Positions 2,808 through 63,871 of a stretch of 64,000 nucleotides of DNA are shown one piece after another. Position 1 is the first letter of the stretch. Each line of letters begins with the position of its first letter. Both the position numbers and the translations under genes were made by a program. The DNA is from Escherichia phage GEP001. Location of the stretch: the sequence record PV173775, one strand, 5' to 3'. Below the pieces are notes generated by a model that saw only the letters and a list, made by a program, of their open reading frames with translations, did not search any database and was not told the origin of the DNA.

Positions 2808-3116
2808 ATGAAACTGACAACTGAACAAAAAGTAGCAATTCGTGAAATTTTGAAAACTAAATTGTCCATGGGGGTTTCAAACATAGTTTTTGAAAAGTCT
2901 GATGGTACTATTCGTACTATGAAAGGTACTCGTGATGCTGATTTTATGCCAACCATGCAAACCGGTAAATTGACTGAATCTACTCGGAAAGAATCTACTG
3001 ATATGATTCCAGTATTTGATGTTGAGCTTGGTGCATGGCGAGGTTTTTCTATTGACAAATTGATTTCCGTTAATGGTATGAAAGTTGAGCATTTGCTTCA
3101 ATTTATTGGTAAATAA
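2808..3116 (+). CDS. hypothetical protein, 102 aa (T4 31.1 position)
   Basis: ATG 2808 directly follows upstream stop. Confidence 0.55.
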   Translation: MKLTTEQKVAIREILKTKLSMGVSNIVFEKSDGTIRTMKGTRDADFMPTMQTGKLTESTRKESTDMIPVFDVELGAWRGFSIDKLISVNGMKVEHLLQFIGK

Positions 3117-3142
3117 ATGCTTTAAGAATTATTTGTTATTAT
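3116..3142 (+). promoter_or_regulatory. middle promoter (MotA box AATGCTTTA + -10 TATTAT, 12-nt spacer) for gene 31
   Basis: MotA box 3116-3124, -10 3137-3142; 28 nt identical to the copy at 62582-62609. Confidence 0.65.
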
Positions 3143-3172
3143 TAATTCATCTGTTAACAAAAAGGAAAAACG

Positions 3173-3508
3173 ATGTCTGAAGTACAACAGCTACCAATTC
3201 GTGCTGTCGGTGAATTTGTTATTTTAGTTTCTGAACCTGCGCAAGCCGGTGATGAAGAAGTTACAGAATCAGGACTTATTATCGGTAAACGTGTTCAAGG
3301 TGAAGTTCCTGAACTGTGTGTAGTTCACTCCGTTGGTCCTGATGTTCCTGAAGGTTTCTGCGAAGTTGGTGATTTGACTTCTCTTCCAGTTGGTCAAATT
3401 CGAAACGTTCCGCATCCTTTTGTAGCTCTGGGACTTAAGCAGCCAAAAGAAATTAAACAAAAATTCGTTACCTGTCACTATAAAGCTATTCCGTGTCTTT
3501 ATAAGTGA
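3173..3508 (+). CDS. 31: head-assembly co-chaperonin (GroES analogue)
   Basis: 111 aa; [14 protein letters not shown]...KAIPCLYK recognised from memory of T4 gp31; middle promoter 3116-3142 upstream. Confidence 0.9.
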
Positions 3509-4235: not shown

Positions 4236-4254
4236 CCAAAGATTGCACAAAGTT

Positions 4255-4284
4255 GTTTACAGTATGGTTCCTTTGTGATAGTAT
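4255..4284 (+). promoter_or_regulatory. early-type promoter (CACAAAGTTGTTTACA ... TAGTAT)
   Basis: GTTTAC 4255-4260, TAGTAT 4279-4284; follows terminator 4205-4235. Confidence 0.6.
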
Positions 4285-4311
4285 TATCTTACACAAACAA
4301 AGGAGAATAAA

Positions 4312-4644
4312 ATGAAAACGATTAATCTAAACGCTGCGGTTAAAACTAAATGCTTCAATGGTAAATATGATGAAACTATGTGGTTCTTAATGGCAGTTGA
4401 AGGTGATATTATTGAAGTAGAAACAACAGAAGGTATGGGAACAGATTTCACCTTTACAATTCAAGTTCATAATTTCTTTACTGGTTGGATTTATGAATTG
4501 AATACAGTAATCGTTGGAAAAATTGAACAAAATGAATCAGGTGAATGGTATTATGTTACAGCTCGCCAACGTGCCGAACGCTTAATTGAGAAGATGAAAA
4601 AAGTTGGTAAACTTGACATGCAACATTGGAAAGTAGTAAAATAA
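4312..4644 (+). CDS. hypothetical protein, 110 aa (T4 30.8 position)
   Basis: AGGAG ribosome-binding site upstream of ATG 4312; early promoter 4255-4284. Confidence 0.55.
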   Translation: MKTINLNAAVKTKCFNGKYDETMWFLMAVEGDIIEVETTEGMGTDFTFTIQVHNFFTGWIYELNTVIVGKIEQNESGEWYYVTARQRAERLIEKMKKVGKLDMQHWKVVK

Positions 4645-9034: not shown

Positions 9035-9057
9035 GAATAAACACTAGAGAGGATATG

Positions 9058-11151
9058 ATGGAACTCATTACAGAATTATTTGACGAAGATACTACTCTTC
9101 CGATTACAAACTTAAATCCAAAGAAGAAAATACCGCAAATTTTTTCAGTTCATGTTGATGACGCAATTGAACAACCAGGCTTTCGTTTATGTACCTATAC
9201 ATCTGGAGGTGATACTAACCGTGATTTAAAGATGGGCGATAAAATGATGCATATTGTTCCTTTTACATTAACTGCTAAAGGTTCAATTGCTAAATTAAAA
9301 GGTCTCGGTCCAAGCCCAATTAATTACATCAATTCAGTTTTTACTGTTGCAATGCAGACGATGCGCCAGTATAAAATTGATGCCTGTATGCTTCGTATTC
9401 TTAAGTCTAAAACTGCTGGTCAAGCTCGACAAATTCAAGTTATTGCTGATAGACTTATCCGTAGTCGTTCAGGCGGCAGATACGTCCTTCTTAAGGAACT
9501 CTGGGATTACGATAAAAAGTATGCATATATTCTTATACATCGCAAAAATGTATCACTAGAAGACATTCCAGGAGTTCCAGAAATTAGTACCGAGCTCTTT
9601 ACTAAAGTTGAATCGAAGGTCGGCGATGTTTATATCAATAAAGATACTGGAGCTCAAGTAACTAAAAATGAGGCAATTGCAGCATCTATTGCGCAAGAAA
9701 ATGATAAACGTTCTGACCAAGCTGTAATCGTTAAAGTTAAAATTTCCCGTAGAGCAATTGCACAAAGTCAGTCATTGGAATCTTCTAGATTTGAAAGTGA
9801 ATTATTCCAGAAATATGAATCTACCGCAGCTAATTTCAATAAACCTGCTACAGCTCCTTTAATTCCCGAAGCAGAAGAAATGAAGCTTGGAATTAATTCA
9901 TTAGCTTCTAAAACTAAGGCAGCAAAAATTATTGCCGAAGGAACCGCAGATGAACTTCACTATGACTATAAATTCTTTTCAAAAAGTGATGTTAATGAAG
10001 TTTCTGAAAAAATTAAAGATGTAATTCTTAATGCGATTAAAAATGAACCAACTACTTCAATAAAATGTTTAGAGAAGTATGCAGCAGCTATTAATAAATT
10101 CTTTGAAGAATATAAAGATACTTGGCTTGATAAACATAATAAAACTCGTAAAGGGCAGCCAGATGAAGTCTGGGAAGAAATAACTAAAAATTCCTGGAAC
10201 GCAGCAAAAACTAAATTCCTCAAACGAATGATTTATAGCTTTTCTGGAATTGGTGCAGGTCCAATGATTGATATTACTATTGCCCGTGATGGTTCTAAAT
10301 ATACTCCATCACAAAAGCGCGGCATTAGAGAGTATTGTGGTTCAGGATATACTGACATCAATAATCTTCTTTTGGGTCGTTACAATCCAGAACGATATGA
10401 TGTAATGAGTGAAAAAGAAATTGAATCTGCGATAAATAATTTAGATTCAGCTTTTGAAAATGGTGACCGTATACCAGAAGGCATTACAGTTTATCGTGCT
10501 CAAAGTATGACTGCTCCTATATACGAAGCGCTAGTTAAAAATAAAGTGTTCTATTTCAGAAATTTTGTATCTACTTCTTTAACTCCTATCATTTTTGGAC
10601 GTTTTGGAATTACACATGCTGGTATCGGTCTTTTAGAACCAGAAGCTCGTAATGAATTAACAGTTGATAAAAATGAAGAAGGAATAACTATTAATCCAAA
10701 CGAAATAAGAGCGTATAAAGAAAATCCTGAATACGTTAAAGTTCAAATAGGATGGGCAATTGATGGAGCTCATAAAGTTAATGTTGTATATCCAGGAAGT
10801 CTCGGAATAGCAACAGAAGCTGAAGTAATTCTACCACGCGGATTGATGGTCAAAGTTAATAAAATAACTGATGCTTCTAATAATGACGGAACAACATCTA
10901 ATAATACAAAACTCATTCAAGCTGAAGTTATGACTACGGAAGAACTCACCGAATCAGTCATTTATGACGGTGACCGTCTAATGGAAACCGGCGAAGTAGT
11001 TGCAATGACAGGTGATATTGAAATAGAAGACAGAGTTGACTTTGCATCATTTGTTTCATCAAATGTTAAACAGAAAGCAGAATCATCTCTCGGAATTATT
11101 GCGTCTTGCATAGATATTACAAACATGCCTTACAAGTTCGTTCAAGGATAA
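9058..11151 (+). CDS. alt: ADP-ribosyltransferase Alt (capsid-packaged, modifies host RNA polymerase)
   Basis: 697 aa from second ATG (MELITELFDEDTTLPITNL... recalled T4 Alt N-terminus); STS motif (FYFRNFVSTSL) and E-x-E (EAEVILPRG); late promoter TATAAATA 9027-9034. Confidence 0.85.
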   Translation: MELITELFDEDTTLPITNLNPKKKIPQIFSVHVDDAIEQPGFRLCTYTSGGDTNRDLKMGDKMMHIVPFTLTAKGSIAKLKGLGPSPINYINSVFTVAMQTMRQYKIDACMLRILKSKTAGQARQIQVIADRLIRSRSGGRYVLLKELWDYDKKYAYILIHRKNVSLEDIPGVPEISTELFTKVESKVGDVYINKDTGAQVTKNEAIAASIAQENDKRSDQAVIVKVKISRRAIAQSQSLESSRFESELFQKYESTAANFNKPATAPLIPEAEEMKLGINSLASKTKAAKIIAEGTADELHYDYKFFSKSDVNEVSEKIKDVILNAIKNEPTTSIKCLEKYAAAINKFFEEYKDTWLDKHNKTRKGQPDEVWEEITKNSWNAAKTKFLKRMIYSFSGIGAGPMIDITIARDGSKYTPSQKRGIREYCGSGYTDINNLLLGRYNPERYDVMSEKEIESAINNLDSAFENGDRIPEGITVYRAQSMTAPIYEALVKNKVFYFRNFVSTSLTPIIFGRFGITHAGIGLLEPEARNELTVDKNEEGITINPNEIRAYKENPEYVKVQIGWAIDGAHKVNVVYPGSLGIATEAEVILPRGLMVKVNKITDASNNDGTTSNNTKLIQAEVMTTEELTESVIYDGDRLMETGEVVAMTGDIEIEDRVDFASFVSSNVKQKAESSLGIIASCIDITNMPYKFVQG

Positions 11152-11154
11152 ATC

Positions 11155-13212
11155 ATGGAACTTATTACAGAATTATTTGACGGCGCTTCGGCGCCGGTTG
11201 TTAACTTAAATCCTAAGCATAAAATACCTCAAATTTTTGCTATTCAAGCCGGTGAAGAAAGCGTGCTTCCTGGATTTAGATTTTGTACATACACCTCTGG
11301 CGGTGATACAAATAAAAACGTTAAGCCAGGCGATAAAATGATGCATATCGTAATGATAGGTGTTAATGAGAAACTATCATTAGTTAAACTTAAAAACTTA
11401 GGTGGAAATCCAATTGGTGTCATTAATGCGGTTTTTGATACTGCTCTTCAGACAATGAAACAGTACAAAATTGACGCATGCTTATTCCGCGTACTAAAGA
11501 GTAAAACAAATGGCGCAGCTCGACAAATTCAAGTTATTGCTGACCGTTTAGTACGTACTAAAGGAGCAGGTCGATATGTTCTTTTAAAAGAAATCTGGGA
11601 TTACGATAAAAAGTACGCATATATTATGGTTTACCGTAAAAATGCTAATTTAGAAGACATTCCAGGTGTACCTCCTATTTCAACTGAGTTATTCACAAAA
11701 GTTGAATCAAAGGTTGGTGATGTTTATGTAGATGTTAAAACAGGTAATGCTGTTCCTAAAGCTGTTGCTGTTGCTGCTTCTATTGCTTTAGAAAATGATA
11801 AGCGCACGGATCAAGCTGTTATTCAGAAAACTAAAATTAGTCGTCGATTAGCAGCACAAGCTCAATACTCTACTGTCGATGCTTCACTTCAGGGTGATAG
11901 CTTCGCTGCTAAGAAATATCAAGAGTTTGAATCTAAAGTTCCGGTATATAAAGCAGAAGGACCAATGAACTCCGGCGTTATTCAGGTTGGTTCAAACTTC
12001 AGCAAAGGAGCTATCGGTGGTATGAGAAGTGCTTCTCGTTTTAAATCTAATGATTATGAACTAGAAAGCTTCCGAAATCATATTGCATTGGCTCATGCAC
12101 GTTTACGTGATCCATCTATCAAGTTACAGAGCGATATAACATATCAAGGTTCTCAAGAATATTTAAAGAATAAAGAATTTTTTGATTATAAAACTGATAA
12201 AATTTTAAGCGATCTTGCTGACATTAATATTTCTAATAGCTTTGATGTTATTAAGAAAATTGTCAATGATTTAGTTAAAGGTTCTAAAGCCACACCAGAT
12301 GAAAAGGTAGCTATTGTTCAATTTGTCATGAATGGCATTTATAAATTGATTAATGAGTCTGCTTCTCAAGCGTATGAATATGCAAGTACTGAAGTACCCC
12401 CAAAAGGATTAACTCAAGCTGAGTCTGATGTAATTGAAGATTATTGCGCAGATTCATATGTTGAAATGAACTCGTTCCTTTTAGGTAAACCAGATTCTAC
12501 TCGTGAAGAATATATGGAACGAGCTATTAAACACATCGAGACAATGGATTCTGCTTTTGCCAAAGGATCAGTTCTTCCTCCAGGAACTACGCTTTACCGT
12601 GGCCAAGAAGTTACCTTTAAAACTTTACGTCATAATATTGAAAATAAAATGTTCTATTTTAAGAACTTCGTATCCACATCGCTTAAACCAAATATCTTCG
12701 GTGAGTATGGTAAAAACTATATGGCCCTAGATGATTCCGGCACAGTATTTTCTGGTGAAGGAGAAGGTTCAGTTGATGCTGAAGATTTGATGCATATGGG
12801 CAGTCATTCTGCGTATGCCAATGAAGATGCTGAAACTAGCGTTGGTATGGTAATTAAAGGAGCTGAGCGAATCAAAGTTATCGTTCCAGGTCATTTATCA
12901 GGATTTCCATCAGAAGCTGAAGTTATTTTACCGCGTGGAATTTTGCTGAAGATTAATAAAGTGAGTACGTACATGATGAAAGAAACTGCTTATAACAAGT
13001 ATCTAATCGAAGGCACAATCGTTCCTCCTTCTGAACAATTAGAAGAATCGGTATATGATGGTGACCATCTGATGGAAACTGGTGAAGTTCGTCCAATGAC
13101 TGGATTTAACCAATTCCTTGTAGAAGAATCAAAAGAAGAGGAAAACGAAGTTTCTCAAATCTTGGCTTCTTTGGTTAACATCAACGGAATGTCTAAAAAG
13201 TTCAAGATGTAG
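11155..13212 (+). CDS. Alt-paralogous ADP-ribosyltransferase, 685 aa
   Basis: N-terminal ~230 aa closely parallel to Alt (MELITELFDGASAPVVNLNPKHKIPQIF...); STS (FYFKNFVSTSL) and E-x-E (EAEVILPRG) retained; central region unrelated. Confidence 0.8.
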   Translation: MELITELFDGASAPVVNLNPKHKIPQIFAIQAGEESVLPGFRFCTYTSGGDTNKNVKPGDKMMHIVMIGVNEKLSLVKLKNLGGNPIGVINAVFDTALQTMKQYKIDACLFRVLKSKTNGAARQIQVIADRLVRTKGAGRYVLLKEIWDYDKKYAYIMVYRKNANLEDIPGVPPISTELFTKVESKVGDVYVDVKTGNAVPKAVAVAASIALENDKRTDQAVIQKTKISRRLAAQAQYSTVDASLQGDSFAAKKYQEFESKVPVYKAEGPMNSGVIQVGSNFSKGAIGGMRSASRFKSNDYELESFRNHIALAHARLRDPSIKLQSDITYQGSQEYLKNKEFFDYKTDKILSDLADINISNSFDVIKKIVNDLVKGSKATPDEKVAIVQFVMNGIYKLINESASQAYEYASTEVPPKGLTQAESDVIEDYCADSYVEMNSFLLGKPDSTREEYMERAIKHIETMDSAFAKGSVLPPGTTLYRGQEVTFKTLRHNIENKMFYFKNFVSTSLKPNIFGEYGKNYMALDDSGTVFSGEGEGSVDAEDLMHMGSHSAYANEDAETSVGMVIKGAERIKVIVPGHLSGFPSEAEVILPRGILLKINKVSTYMMKETAYNKYLIEGTIVPPSEQLEESVYDGDHLMETGEVRPMTGFNQFLVEESKEEENEVSQILASLVNINGMSKKFKM

Positions 13213-28428: not shown

Positions 28429-28436
28429 TATTTATA
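28429..28436 (-). promoter_or_regulatory. late promoter TATAAATA for gene 24
   Basis: TATTTATA on + strand, 29 nt upstream of gene 24 ATG. Confidence 0.65.
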
Positions 28437-28442
28437 AAAGTT

Positions 28443-28472
28443 GTTTACAGCAAGGTTATCACATGTTACTAT
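28443..28472 (+). promoter_or_regulatory. early-type promoter (AAAGTTGTTTACA ... TACTAT) for the 88-aa ORF
   Basis: GTTTAC 28443-28448, TACTAT 28467-28472. Confidence 0.6.
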
Positions 28473-28502
28473 AGACCTATCAAAAACATGAGGAGATTAA
28501 AA

Positions 28503-60077: not shown

Positions 60078-60774
<697 letters not shown>

Positions 60775-60786
60775 TTTCACAAAGTT

Positions 60787-60816
60787 GTTTACACGCTGAT
60801 GAGGTAGTGATACTAT
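60787..60816 (+). promoter_or_regulatory. early-type promoter (CACAAAGTTGTTTACA ... TACTAT) for ipI
   Basis: GTTTAC 60787-60792, TACTAT 60811-60816. Confidence 0.65.
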
Positions 60817-60846
60817 TATCTCATCAAAATTAATTAGGAAAATAAA

Positions 60847-61134
60847 ATGAAAACATTTAAAGAATTTACTTCTACAACTACCCCGGTTTCTACCATTACC
60901 GAAGCTACTCTTACTTCTGAAGTTATTAAAGCAAATAAAGGACGAGAAGGTAAACCAATGATTAGTCTGGTTGATGGCGAAGAAATCAAAGGTACTGTTT
61001 ACCTAGGCGATGGGTGGTCTGCTAAAAAGGATGGTGCTACAATCGTTATCTCTCCTGCTGAAGAAACTGCGTTGTTTAAAGCTAAACATATTTCTGCGGC
61101 ACATCTCAAGATTATTGCTAAAAATCTTTTGTAA
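60847..61134 (+). CDS. ipI: internal protein I (packaged, injected; anti-restriction in T4)
   Basis: 95 aa; MKTFKEFTSTTTPVSTITEATL... recognised from memory; early promoter 60787-60816. Confidence 0.88.
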   Translation: MKTFKEFTSTTTPVSTITEATLTSEVIKANKGREGKPMISLVDGEEIKGTVYLGDGWSAKKDGATIVISPAEETALFKAKHISAAHLKIIAKNLL

Positions 61135-61152
61135 TAAATATTTCACAAAGTT

Positions 61153-61182
61153 GTTTACATAGGGTTTTAGTTGTGATACTAT
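61153..61182 (+). promoter_or_regulatory. early-type promoter (CACAAAGTTGTTTACA ... TACTAT)
   Basis: GTTTAC 61153-61158, TACTAT 61177-61182; upstream half identical to the ipI promoter. Confidence 0.65.
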
Positions 61183-61210
61183 TACCCTATCAACTACTGA
61201 GGAGAATAAA

Positions 61211-61396
61211 ATGAAACGTTGTGAATTAATTCGAAATGTTGCTATTGCAATTTCTGCTTCTGCTTTTAGTTTTTCAATGTTTGTTGGATTTATATGCGGA
61301 TTATTGACTACAGCAGAAAACGTTTTTTCACTTGTAGTAGCATTTTTAATTGGTTTAATCGCTATTGTTATGGATAAAATTTCTAAAGGTGAATAG
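61211..61396 (+). CDS. small hydrophobic (probable membrane) protein, 61 aa
   Basis: two hydrophobic stretches (IAISASAFSFSMFVGFICGLL and FSLVVAFLIGLIAIV); early promoter 61153-61182; GGAGAA ribosome-binding site. Confidence 0.6.
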   Translation: MKRCELIRNVAIAISASAFSFSMFVGFICGLLTTAENVFSLVVAFLIGLIAIVMDKISKGE

Positions 61397-61783: not shown

Positions 61784-62089
61784 ATGATTCTTTATGCGAA
61801 AGTATCGTCCATTGAAAATGGATATAAATATGATCAAGAAGCAGCTAAAGCCTTGATTGATGATTATGGCATTTTAACGTGTTTTGAAGTTGAAAAGGTT
61901 TACATTGACCGTTCATCTTCTCAAGTTAAATTAGTGAAGGAAGACCGTAAATTTAATACAGTAAATTTTGATTTCTTTATTGAAACAGAAAAAGGTCCTC
62001 TTGAATATGATATTTTCAAGAATCCTTTGGGTCTTGAATGTATTAAATATACTTACATTAATATGGTGAACAAATGTATATTCGTTTAG
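61784..62089 (+). CDS. hypothetical protein, 101 aa
   Basis: ATG 2 nt after upstream stop. Confidence 0.55.
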   Translation: MILYAKVSSIENGYKYDQEAAKALIDDYGILTCFEVEKVYIDRSSSQVKLVKEDRKFNTVNFDFFIETEKGPLEYDIFKNPLGLECIKYTYINMVNKCIFV

Positions 62090-62589
62090 GCAGCACAATT
62101 CCTAAGGGTTACGTAATTGATGTCACTACCTGGGAAAATGATGGTGACAACTATAAAACAAAAACTCTGTTTGGCGTAGAAGAGCATGAGCTCCAACAAT
62201 TTAAATATCTCTTGAAGAAGTTTAAGAGTCGTCATTCTAGTACCAAAGTTGAACGTTATTGTGGTAATGGTTTGTTCAGCGAGCAAGAGCTTTTTATATA
62301 TGAATATTTGGTTGAAGGACTGTTCTCAGACCAACTTTATCCAGAATTCATTAAAAAGGTCTTTGACATAGAAGTTGACCTTGGTAATAAATCCGAAGAA
62401 GATGAAGAACGTGTATTTGACTTATTCTTTGTGAATGGTAATAAGATATCTGAAGGCCTCATTGATATTCTTGGTCATGCTTCTGAATACTATGAATATG
62501 ATTTCTTGCGTGTAGTTGAACATGTAGAATTTGCTTATATCGAAGAAGAAATTGTTTTGCCGACTGTTAAAATGGTTGATTTGCTTTAA
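62074..62589 (+). CDS. hypothetical protein, 171 aa
   Basis: overlaps upstream ORF by 16 nt; stop overlaps MotA-box promoter of the tRNA cluster. Confidence 0.55.
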   Translation: MYIRLGSTIPKGYVIDVTTWENDGDNYKTKTLFGVEEHELQQFKYLLKKFKSRHSSTKVERYCGNGLFSEQELFIYEYLVEGLFSDQLYPEFIKKVFDIEVDLGNKSEEDEERVFDLFFVNGNKISEGLIDILGHASEYYEYDFLRVVEHVEFAYIEEEIVLPTVKMVDLL

Positions 62590-62606
62590 GAATTATTTGT
62601 TATTAT
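62580..62606 (+). promoter_or_regulatory. middle promoter (MotA box TTTGCTTTA + -10 TATTAT) ahead of the tRNA cluster
   Basis: MotA box 62580-62588, 12-nt spacer, TATTAT 62601-62606; duplicate of the gene 31 promoter. Confidence 0.6.
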
Positions 62607-62675
62607 TAACTCATATCGCACTGATTAATACCCTCTATCATCAAGGGTTCTTATTTGAGAGCCTTTGTTAATAAT

Positions 62676-62748
62676 TGGGAATTAGCCAAGTTGGTAAGGC
62701 ACTGGATTTTGATTCCAGGATGCAAAGGTTCGAGTCCTTTATTCCCAG
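62676..62748 (+). tRNA. tRNA-Gln (anticodon UUG)
   Basis: Hand-folded: acceptor TGGGAAT/ATTCCCA, anticodon stem CTGGA/TCCAG, loop TTTTGAT; CCA not encoded. Confidence 0.85.
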
Positions 62749-62749
62749 C

Positions 62750-62836
62750 GCGAGAATGGTCAAATTGGTAAAGGCACAGCACTTAAAATGCTGCGGAATG
62801 ATTTCCTTGTGGGTTCGAGTCCCACTTCTCGCACCA
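62750..62836 (+). tRNA. tRNA-Leu (anticodon UAA), long variable arm
   Basis: acceptor GCGAGAA/TTCTCGC, anticodon stem CAGCA/TGCTG, loop CTTAAAA; encoded CCA. Confidence 0.85.
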
Positions 62837-62841
62837 AATTT

Positions 62842-62915
<74 letters not shown>

Positions 62916-62925
62916 ATTTAATTTA

Positions 62926-62999
62926 CTCCGTGTAGCTCAGTTTGGTAGAGCGTCTGCTTTGGGAGCAGAATGTCGTAGGTTCAAATCCTGCTACGGAGA
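62926..62999 (+). tRNA. tRNA-Pro (anticodon UGG)
   Basis: acceptor CTCCGTG/TACGGAG (one G-U), anticodon stem TCTGC/GCAGA, loop TTTGGGA; CCA not encoded. Confidence 0.8.
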
Positions 63000-63001
63000 C
63001 T

Positions 63002-63091
63002 GGAGGCGTGGCAGAGTGGTTTAATGCACCGGTCTTGAAAACCGGCAGTCGCTCCGGCGACTCATAGGTTCAAATCCTATCGCCTCCGCCA
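63002..63091 (+). tRNA. tRNA-Ser (anticodon UGA), long variable arm
   Basis: acceptor GGAGGCG/CGCCTCC, anticodon stem CCGGT/ACCGG, loop CTTGAAA; encoded CCA. Confidence 0.85.
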
Positions 63092-63097
63092 GTTTTT

Positions 63098-63173
63098 GCT
63101 GATTTAGCTCAGTAGGTAGAGCACCTCACTTGTAATGAGGACGTCGGCGGTTCGATTCCGTCAATCAGCACCA
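63098..63173 (+). tRNA. tRNA-Thr (anticodon UGU)
   Basis: acceptor GCTGATT/AATCAGC, anticodon stem CCTCA/TGAGG, loop CTTGTAA; encoded CCA. Confidence 0.85.
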
Positions 63174-63174
63174 A

Positions 63175-63249
63175 GGCCCTGTAGCTGGAAGGTTCAAGCA
63201 AGCGACTCATAATCGCCAGATGGTGGTTCAATTCCACCCAGGGCCACCA
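63175..63249 (+). tRNA. tRNA with CAU anticodon (Met by anticodon; may be lysidine-type Ile reading AUA)
   Basis: acceptor GGCCCTG/CAGGGCC, T-arm GGTGG-TTCAATT-CCACC, anticodon loop CTCATAA; top anticodon-stem pair is A/C. Confidence 0.75.
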
Positions 63250-63258
63250 AATTAATTT

Positions 63259-63345
63259 GGGGAGTTATCCCGTAGAGGTAGCGGTGTGGACTGTAAATTC
63301 ATTGTCATTGCGACTCGGGTGGTTCGACTCCATCACTCCCCACCA
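63259..63345 (+). tRNA. tRNA-like gene, probably tRNA-Tyr (anticodon GUA), long variable arm, non-canonical D-arm
   Basis: 7-bp acceptor GGGGAGT/ACTCCCC + A + CCA, T-arm GGTGG-TTCGACT-CCATC, loop CTGTAAA flanked by GTGGA/TTCAT (two G-U pairs); D-arm does not fold canonically by hand. Confidence 0.55.
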
Positions 63346-63349
63346 ATTT

Positions 63350-63424
63350 GGATGTGTAGCTCAATGGCAGAGCGATCGCCTGTTAAGCGATTGGTTATAG
63401 GTTCGAATCCTATCACGTCCGCCA
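63350..63424 (+). tRNA. tRNA-Asn (anticodon GUU)
   Basis: clean cloverleaf: acceptor GGATGTG/CACGTCC, D-stem GCTC/GAGC, anticodon stem ATCGC/GCGAT, loop CTGTTAA, T-arm ATAGG-TTCGAAT-CCTAT; encoded CCA. Confidence 0.85.
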
Positions 63425-63428
63425 AATC

Positions 63429-63504
63429 CGAGGCATAGCTCAGAAGGAAGAGCAAGGACCTTCTAAGTCCTAGGTCGTAGGTTCGATCCCTACTGCCTCG
63501 ACCA
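63429..63504 (+). tRNA. tRNA-Arg (anticodon UCU)
   Basis: acceptor CGAGGCA/TGCCTCG, D-stem GCTC/GAGC, anticodon stem AGGAC/GTCCT, loop CTTCTAA; encoded CCA. Confidence 0.85.
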
Positions 63505-63520
63505 ATTAAGTGAGGAAAAT

Positions 63521-63871
63521 ATGAAAGGTAATGTTTATTTAGTAGTTCATGATTTAACATTCTATTTTAATCACAATGACACTGTTATTTCTGAACGTGT
63601 AATTAATTTACTTTATCAGCACGCAGATTATGTTTATGTCGAAAACGAATATGGTCATTGGCAATTTCTCAAAAATCGTTCATTTGGTTTAGATGGTTAC
63701 GAATACTTTGAACGTAAAGACCTTTTAGATAAAATTCCGTTATCTACACAATATCAAAATCATAAGTCTTTACATAAATGCCGTCAAATTCGAAATGCTG
63801 AATCTGCGTATGAAGCAATTGATTTATGGCGTAAACGTCGTGAACAGATTGATGCATTAAAAGAATATTAA
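63521..63871 (+). CDS. hypothetical protein, 116 aa
   Basis: GAGGAAAA ribosome-binding site upstream of ATG 63521, immediately after tRNA-Arg. Confidence 0.55.
   Translation: MKGNVYLVVHDLTFYFNHNDTVISERVINLLYQHADYVYVENEYGHWQFLKNRSFGLDGYEYFERKDLLDKIPLSTQYQNHKSLHKCRQIRNAESAYEAIDLWRKRREQIDALKEY

Follow-up and report, generated by a model that had tools for sequence, protein, structure and literature searches.

The window analysed here is the whole stretch of 64,000 nt from Escherichia phage GEP001 (PV173775), in which a short element occurs at two loci 59 kb apart. Copy 1 lies between gene 31.1 and gene 31, and copy 2 between an ORF of 171 aa and a cluster of tRNA genes, and the gene annotation agrees with the positions, before gene 31 and before the tRNA cluster, that had been given in the initial annotation. 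The features of the two loci are the following:

2808-3116, + strand: gene 31.1 orthologue, 102 aa, upstream of copy 1 (ORF list, T4 annotation)
3118-3150, + strand: copy 1, 33-nt repeat (32/33 to copy 2), orthologue of T4 P31, which differs at 1 of the 28 positions
3118-3124 (copy 1) and 62582-62588 (copy 2), + strand: MotA core TGCTTTA
3125-3136 (copy 1) and 62589-62600 (copy 2), + strand: 12-nt spacer AGAATTATTTGT
3134-3135 (copy 1) and 62598-62599 (copy 2), + strand: TG of the extended -10, one base before the -10, absent from the initial annotation
3137-3142 (copy 1) and 62601-62606 (copy 2), + strand: -10 TATTAT
3149, + strand: predicted start A of copy 1, 24 nt before the ATG of gene 31, matching T4 131540
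3173-3508, + strand: gene 31, GroES-like head assembly co-chaperonin, 111 aa, served by copy 1 (T4 annotation, annotated matches)
62074-62589, + strand: 171-aa ORF upstream of copy 2, whose final codons TTG CTT TAA are the MotA box
62582-62614, + strand: copy 2, orthologue of T4 PtRNAE (PtRNAsc1), which is identical over the 28-mer
62613, + strand: predicted start A of copy 2, 63 nt before tRNA-Gln, matching T4 72593
62642-62667, + strand: 11-bp hairpin in the tRNA leader (-13.5 kcal/mol, z = -2.4)
62676-63504, + strand: tRNA cluster downstream of copy 2, 10 genes (Gln, Leu, Gly, Pro, Ser, Thr, CAU-anticodon, Tyr, Asn, Arg)

The element is a 28-mer, TGCTTTAAGAATTATTTGTTATTATTAA, present in exactly two copies at 3118-3145 and 62582-62609, both on the plus strand. 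The chance expectation for such a sequence is none, no match was obtained in 100 shuffles, and the exact-match search and the shuffles together confirm the two identical 28-nt copies described initially. A search of the window allowing up to 3 mismatches gave no site beyond these two, and at up to 6 mismatches no further site was found in the T4 genome and the window. With a repeat finder, the 28-mer grows to 33 nt (32/33 identical), the sole mismatch being position 29 (t/c), and the pair is the only long exact dispersed non-coding repeat found in the window. The flank comparison suggested in the initial annotation reveals sharp tract edges, identity outside the 33-mer falling to the random level with 19/60 positions upstream and 16/58 downstream.

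Other repeats were seen in the window. Early-promoter-like repeats of 54 nt with 63-78% identity, of the form AAAGTTGTTTACA...TAcTAT, lie at 4242-4325, 28430-28483, 60774-60860 and 61140-61224; downstream of three of the four, a ribosome-binding site and N-terminus (AGGAGAATAAAATGAAAAC) are repeated as well. Two stretches of about 200 nt, at 9055-9257 and 11152-11351, form a direct repeat (2.1 kb apart, 72-94% identity), which may correspond to the partial duplication of alt in the T4 annotation (alt.-1/alt.-2).

Both copies have the organisation of a MotA-type middle promoter. The MotA box consensus quoted in PMC1524935 and PMC2988021, (a/t)(a/t)(a/t)TGCTT(t/c)A near -30, is found as aaaTGCTTTA at 3115-3124 and as attTGCTTTA at 62579-62588, and the -10 element (TAnnnT, 11-13 bp past the box, often with TGn) is found in both copies as TATTAT with TG, after a spacer of 12 nt. 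The sequence bears out the MotA box, 12-nt spacer and TATTAT -10 initially read in each copy, whereas the proposed overlap of the box with the upstream stop codon is valid for one copy only: in copy 2 the TAA of the 171-aa ORF (62587-62589) sits within the core TGCTT-TAA, but the gene 31.1 stop at copy 1 (TAA, 3114-3116) is separated from TGCTT by 1 nt and reaches only into the A/T-rich 5' extension. A scan of 62000-63700 for the sigma-70 -35/-10 consensus gave no promoter at copy 2, and the sequence of copy 1 is identical; this absence is expected, since the MotA box stands in for the -35. The MotA-type pattern occurs at 13 sites in the window against 4.4 expected, and of these 13 sites the two copies are the only ones with a mutual likeness extending past the box and the -10.

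Both regions of the window are 97-99% identical to many Tequatrovirus (T2/T4-like) genomes, and, judged by sequence, the window belongs to this genus, with an orientation reversed relative to T4 (AF158101). The T4 sequence upstream of tRNA-Gln is 28/28 identical to the 28-mer and the one upstream of gene 31 is 27/28 identical, with a C at position 13 as mismatch. Table 1 of Hinton's review (PMC2988021) places the start of T4 P31 at 131540 (Nivinskas et al. 1989) and the start of PtRNAE, or PtRNAsc1 (subcluster 1), at 72593 (Guild et al. 1988), and each of them falls on the A located 7 nt past the TATTAT of the element. Since the T4 starts coincide with both elements, the promoters themselves were already known; having been mapped in T4 in 1988-89, they add nothing new. 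The window copies are the orthologues of the T4 MotA/AsiA-dependent middle promoters P31 and PtRNA, with which they share the positions (the 31.1/31 junction and directly before the tRNA-Gln leader) as well as the MotA box, 12-nt spacer and TGnTATTAT. This orthology and the published T4 starts support the initial reading of both sites as MotA-type middle promoters, and the objection then foreseen, that no transcript might start downstream of either copy, does not apply. T4 differs from the window by the 171-aa ORF before PtRNA, present in the window only, and by the tRNA cluster, the 10 tRNAs of the window including Tyr and Asn without the homing endonuclease gene segB, whereas T4 has 8 tRNAs, segB and the stable RNAs C and D.

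By orthology, we infer that both copies also depend on MotA and AsiA in GEP001; the T4 motA and asiA genes are found at 161-164 kb, outside the region matching the window. Under the established model of sigma appropriation, by which both promoters most likely work and in which MotA occupies the box while the extended -10 is contacted by region 2 of a sigma-70 remodelled by AsiA (PMC2988021), AsiA would remodel region 4 of the host sigma-70, MotA would bind the TGCTTTA box centred near -30, region 2 of sigma-70 would read the TGnTATTAT extended -10, and transcription would begin at 3149 and 62613, on the A found 7 nt past the TATTAT. As the orthologue of T4 PtRNA, copy 2 would transcribe the tRNA cluster. 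The co-regulation of the head chaperone and the tRNAs proposed in the initial annotation is sound in that both belong to the MotA regulon, but this regulon comprises nearly 60 promoters (PMC2988021) and nothing in it is specific to this pair; the identical sequence may mean that the two promoters are of similar strength. The 63-nt leader of the tRNAs (62613-62675), which contains ACCCTCTAT, is kept in Tequatro-, Mosig-, Dhaka-, Gapriver- and Gelderlandvirus, including cases in which the leader is followed by a different first tRNA, and a search of this leader against Rfam matched only tRNAs and no family for the leader. Past the tRNA cluster of phiE142, a Mosigvirus relative, ARAGORN predicts a 94-nt tRNA with anticodon UUA ("tRNA-Stop", contig L046, 980-1073), perhaps a tRNA of suppressor type, perhaps a false prediction.

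The likeness of the two copies was compared with that of other middle promoters by extracting from the T4 genome all 58 promoters in Table 1 of PMC2988021, which form 1653 pairs. The best ungapped 28-nt identity was 14.5 on average (sd 2.0) and reached 27 for P31/PtRNA, with 22 for the next-best pair, and in gapped local alignment P31/PtRNA scored 35, the mean being 8.8 (sd 2.5) and the second-best score 21. In T4 this likeness extends over 44 nt, interrupted by 2 mismatches and a 2-nt indel. The 28-mer is not the generic middle-promoter consensus. The identity beyond the consensus positions pointed out initially makes the pair an extreme outlier among the T4 pairs, and the concern that the 28-mer could simply be the consensus of most T-even middle promoters does not apply with a next-best pair at 22/28. 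One could still suppose that both sites were independently selected to one optimal middle-promoter sequence, of which the 28-mer would be a strong consensus, since about 15 of the 28 positions are consensus (MotA box, TG, TAnnnT) and both promoters retain TGCTTTAAGAA and TGTTATTATTAA in several genera. Such a convergence seems to us very improbable, however, when no other pair of the mapped T4 promoters comes closer than this next-best value, when the other MotA-type sites of the window match in the box and -10 only, and when the P31 spacer diverges freely by genus while the promoter stays.

Across the Tevenvirinae, the sample comprises five genera with a handful of genomes each (about 11 genome pairs), the gene 31 loci being taken from 26 IMG/VR contigs. 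Contigs were assigned by BLAST to Mosigvirus ChristianSchoenbein, Dhakavirus JS98, Gaprivervirus VR20 and Gelderlandvirus STML-198 (a Salmonella phage), and the tRNA promoter of the other genera was found via the conserved leader ACCCTCTATnAnCAAnGGT. A middle promoter is present at the 31.1/31 junction in 26/26 gene 31 loci, where the TGCTTxA box, the TG and TATTAT(TAA) are kept and the spacer varies by genus. Since at least five Tevenvirinae genera have a middle promoter at each of the two loci, both promoters are old orthologues and not the result of a module insertion. The promoter module copied by recombination that the initial annotation envisaged would keep its recombination, as a conversion homogenising two promoters, but not its copying into a new location.

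Within a genome, P31 and PtRNA are 28/28 alike in the window against 27/28 in T4 (both Tequatrovirus), 27/28 in STML-198, 24/28 in a related contig from a relative of STML-198, 23/28 in Mosigvirus as in JS98 (Dhakavirus), and 21-22/28 in Gaprivervirus. The Tequatrovirus P31 spacer matches its own PtRNA at 12/12 positions, the Mosigvirus PtRNA at 11/12 and the Dhakavirus PtRNA at 10/12, against only 7-9/12 for the P31 of all other sampled genera. Position 16 is T in both Tequatrovirus copies and G in the PtRNA of all other genera that align in the same register. The STML-198 spacers of P31 (AGAAATTCGTGT) and PtRNA (AGAAATTAGTGT) agree at 11/12 positions, with at most 9/12 to any other P31, and their type, AAATT[C/A]GTGT, is found in both copies of this phage but not in both copies of its close relative. 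A within-genome likeness higher than the likeness between lineages, as in concerted evolution, is found in more than one lineage, namely Tequatrovirus and STML-198. Mosigvirus and Dhakavirus do not display this pattern (within-genome spacers 7-8/12), and since their pairs stand at 23/28, homogenisation would be episodic and not universal. In VR20 (Gaprivervirus), the unusual AACGCGT occurs in both spacers, 2 nt out of register, and this phage is a possible third case of homogenised P31/PtRNA. Both loci vary between t and c at position 29 in Tequatrovirus (c in the P31 of contig L050, t in the PtRNA of contig L042), and three more P31 loci of this genus gave almost no informative polymorphism.

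Taken together, these data make it likely that the two copies are T4-type P31 and PtRNA promoters made alike by recurrent ectopic gene conversion between pre-existing promoters. Homogenisation of P31 and PtRNA appears to have taken place in Tequatrovirus and again in the Gelderlandvirus phage STML-198, and the identity outside the consensus positions is best explained by conversion, not by a functional requirement. As read from the comparative pattern, ectopic non-crossover recombination would act between promoters already sharing TGCTTTAAGAA and TGTTATTATTAA, and in Tequatrovirus the PtRNA version would have overwritten the P31 core, from the MotA box to +1. The conversion probably went from PtRNA to P31 in this genus, by parsimony over few positions, and at least one, probably two or three, conversions would be needed under any tree. 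Any crossover between these direct repeats, which lie 59 kb from each other, would remove essential genes, so that conversion products alone would survive. Efficient recombination in T4 needs roughly 50 bp of homology, and since the homologous tract of about 33-44 nt is below this length, conversion would be rare.

In some genera the two promoters are already highly alike through their common TGCTTTAAGAA and TGTTATTATTAA blocks, which points to an older common origin or a shared constraint besides conversion. Alternatively, an ancient promoter duplication would have been maintained by purifying selection with no later exchange, Tequatrovirus keeping the ancestral state and the other genera having diverged at P31. 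The outer blocks common to all genera at both loci, as well as the Mosigvirus and Dhakavirus pairs, which lie above the T4 background maximum of 22, are in agreement with it. We nevertheless hold this scenario to be unlikely, because it requires parallel changes, both for the Tequatrovirus-specific T16 in the two copies and for the Gelderlandvirus-specific AAATTxGTGT in the two STML-198 copies and not those of the close relative, and because the P31 spacer of other genera is weakly constrained, which speaks against strong purifying selection.

The T4 promoter P32 (AF158101 near 148057, outside the window), TGCTTACGAGAATTATGTGTTATTATTA, has a core of 19-20 nt in common with PtRNA. P32/PtRNA gives the third-highest local alignment score among 1652 T4 pairs, and P32 has the G16 state, as in the Mosigvirus PtRNA, and may thus belong to the exchanging family as its third promoter.

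An extra function common to both promoters could also constrain the 28-33 nt, either as a site for another phage or host factor or as a DNA structure (GAATTA/TAATTC around the -10). A 6-bp inverted repeat indeed flanks the -10 of copy 1, the P31 of other genera has strong inverted repeats around the -10 (z -2.5 to -4.8), and the core common to T4 P32 and PtRNA could be read in the same way. In Tequatrovirus, however, the predicted structure is no better than that of shuffled sequence (z = +0.5), the inverted repeat is broken at position 29 in copy 2, and the sequence varies between genera, which renders this explanation improbable. We know of no factor binding these spacers, and none appears in the literature examined here. 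A conserved hairpin around the -10 as the cause of the spacer identity was considered and rejected, being significant at the P31 of some other genera and not in Tequatrovirus. In these other genera (L020, L021, L026, L028 and L029), the P31 promoter lies within a strong inverted repeat with arms in the spacer and around +1, for example GGGTTATGT/ACATAACCC and GAGCATGA/TCATGCTC, which differ by genus; such a strong repeat was looked for in Tequatrovirus and is not present there.

The tRNA promoter also lies at a border of gene content. The 171-aa ORF located between trna.2 and the promoter is present in Mosigvirus and some Tequatrovirus genomes and not in T4 (L002), where the gap opens just past the ATG of this ORF and reaches the (A/T)TG of the MotA box. 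In the Mosigvirus-like contig L048, the 171-aa ORF region has undergone an independent deletion with other end points. An ORF with a M/L-L-stop end terminates within the MotA box in five genera (Tequatrovirus and four others), and the overlap of ORF and box is therefore ancestral. The homology of the window to the gene 31 regions of JS98 and AV112 begins at the box. The end of 31.1 and the trna.2/ORF171 junction of the window were suspected to share 13 nt, TGGTAAATAAATG, but this was dropped, the real sequence being TGGTGAACAAATG (11/13), and a longer upstream likeness, TGGTAAAT[AA]ATG, is seen only in genomes of the T4-type arrangement. A transfer to a T5-like phage, considered from a 44-nt match in the 121-kb PBM-1 (H119) and in a 121-kb IMG/VR contig, was likewise rejected: PBM-1 is classified as a Tequatrovirus, the contig matches phiE142, for which the search gave Mosigvirus phages as closest relatives, the two records fall about 47 kb short of related genomes (about 165-170 kb), and the matches are ordinary tRNA promoters.

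What is new in our results is only the evidence that two dispersed promoters, at a distance of 59 kb, have evolved in concert in at least two T4-like genera. It would imply that the phage recombination system can homogenise tracts of only about 30-45 bp, and the promoter pair could serve as a handy natural reporter for short-homology gene conversion. If the phenomenon is general, promoter alignments of T4-like phages blend selection with recombination history, and functional spacer positions deduced from a consensus would be biased.

A broader proposal, which we find doubtful, is that T-even middle promoters are short portable homology cassettes, repeatedly exchanged and marking the junctions of ORF gain and loss; the exchanging loci would be P31, PtRNA and possibly P32. 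Some T4 middle promoters have R-loop and origin activity, and the exchange might be driven by this activity. If the proposal is true, recombination shapes promoter sequence as much as selection does. These cassettes would be the middle-mode counterpart of the promoter-early stem-loop elements (PeSL), the mobile regulatory cassettes of T4-type phages (Arbiol et al. 2010, PMC2839356; Comeau et al. 2014, PMC4122927). Middle promoters and MotA are mentioned in neither of these two papers. The pair shares with PeSL the nature of dispersed, highly similar promoter-bearing repeats giving short homology for recombination, and the position of a promoter at the edge of gene-content variation, the 171-aa ORF being present or absent exactly at the MotA box. 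In contrast, PeSL consist of an early sigma-70 promoter and a stem-loop, in many copies and in hyperplastic regions (PMC2839356, PMC4122927), whereas the pair consists of two middle (MotA) promoters at conserved loci, which lack a -35 and have no further copy in the window or the T4 genome. The concerted evolution of dispersed paralogues offers a further comparison, the likeness within a genome being higher than that of orthologues between genera, with derived states common to both copies and sharp tract edges. What sets the present case apart from concerted evolution in general is a very short tract (about 33 nt), which is non-coding, regulatory and episodic.
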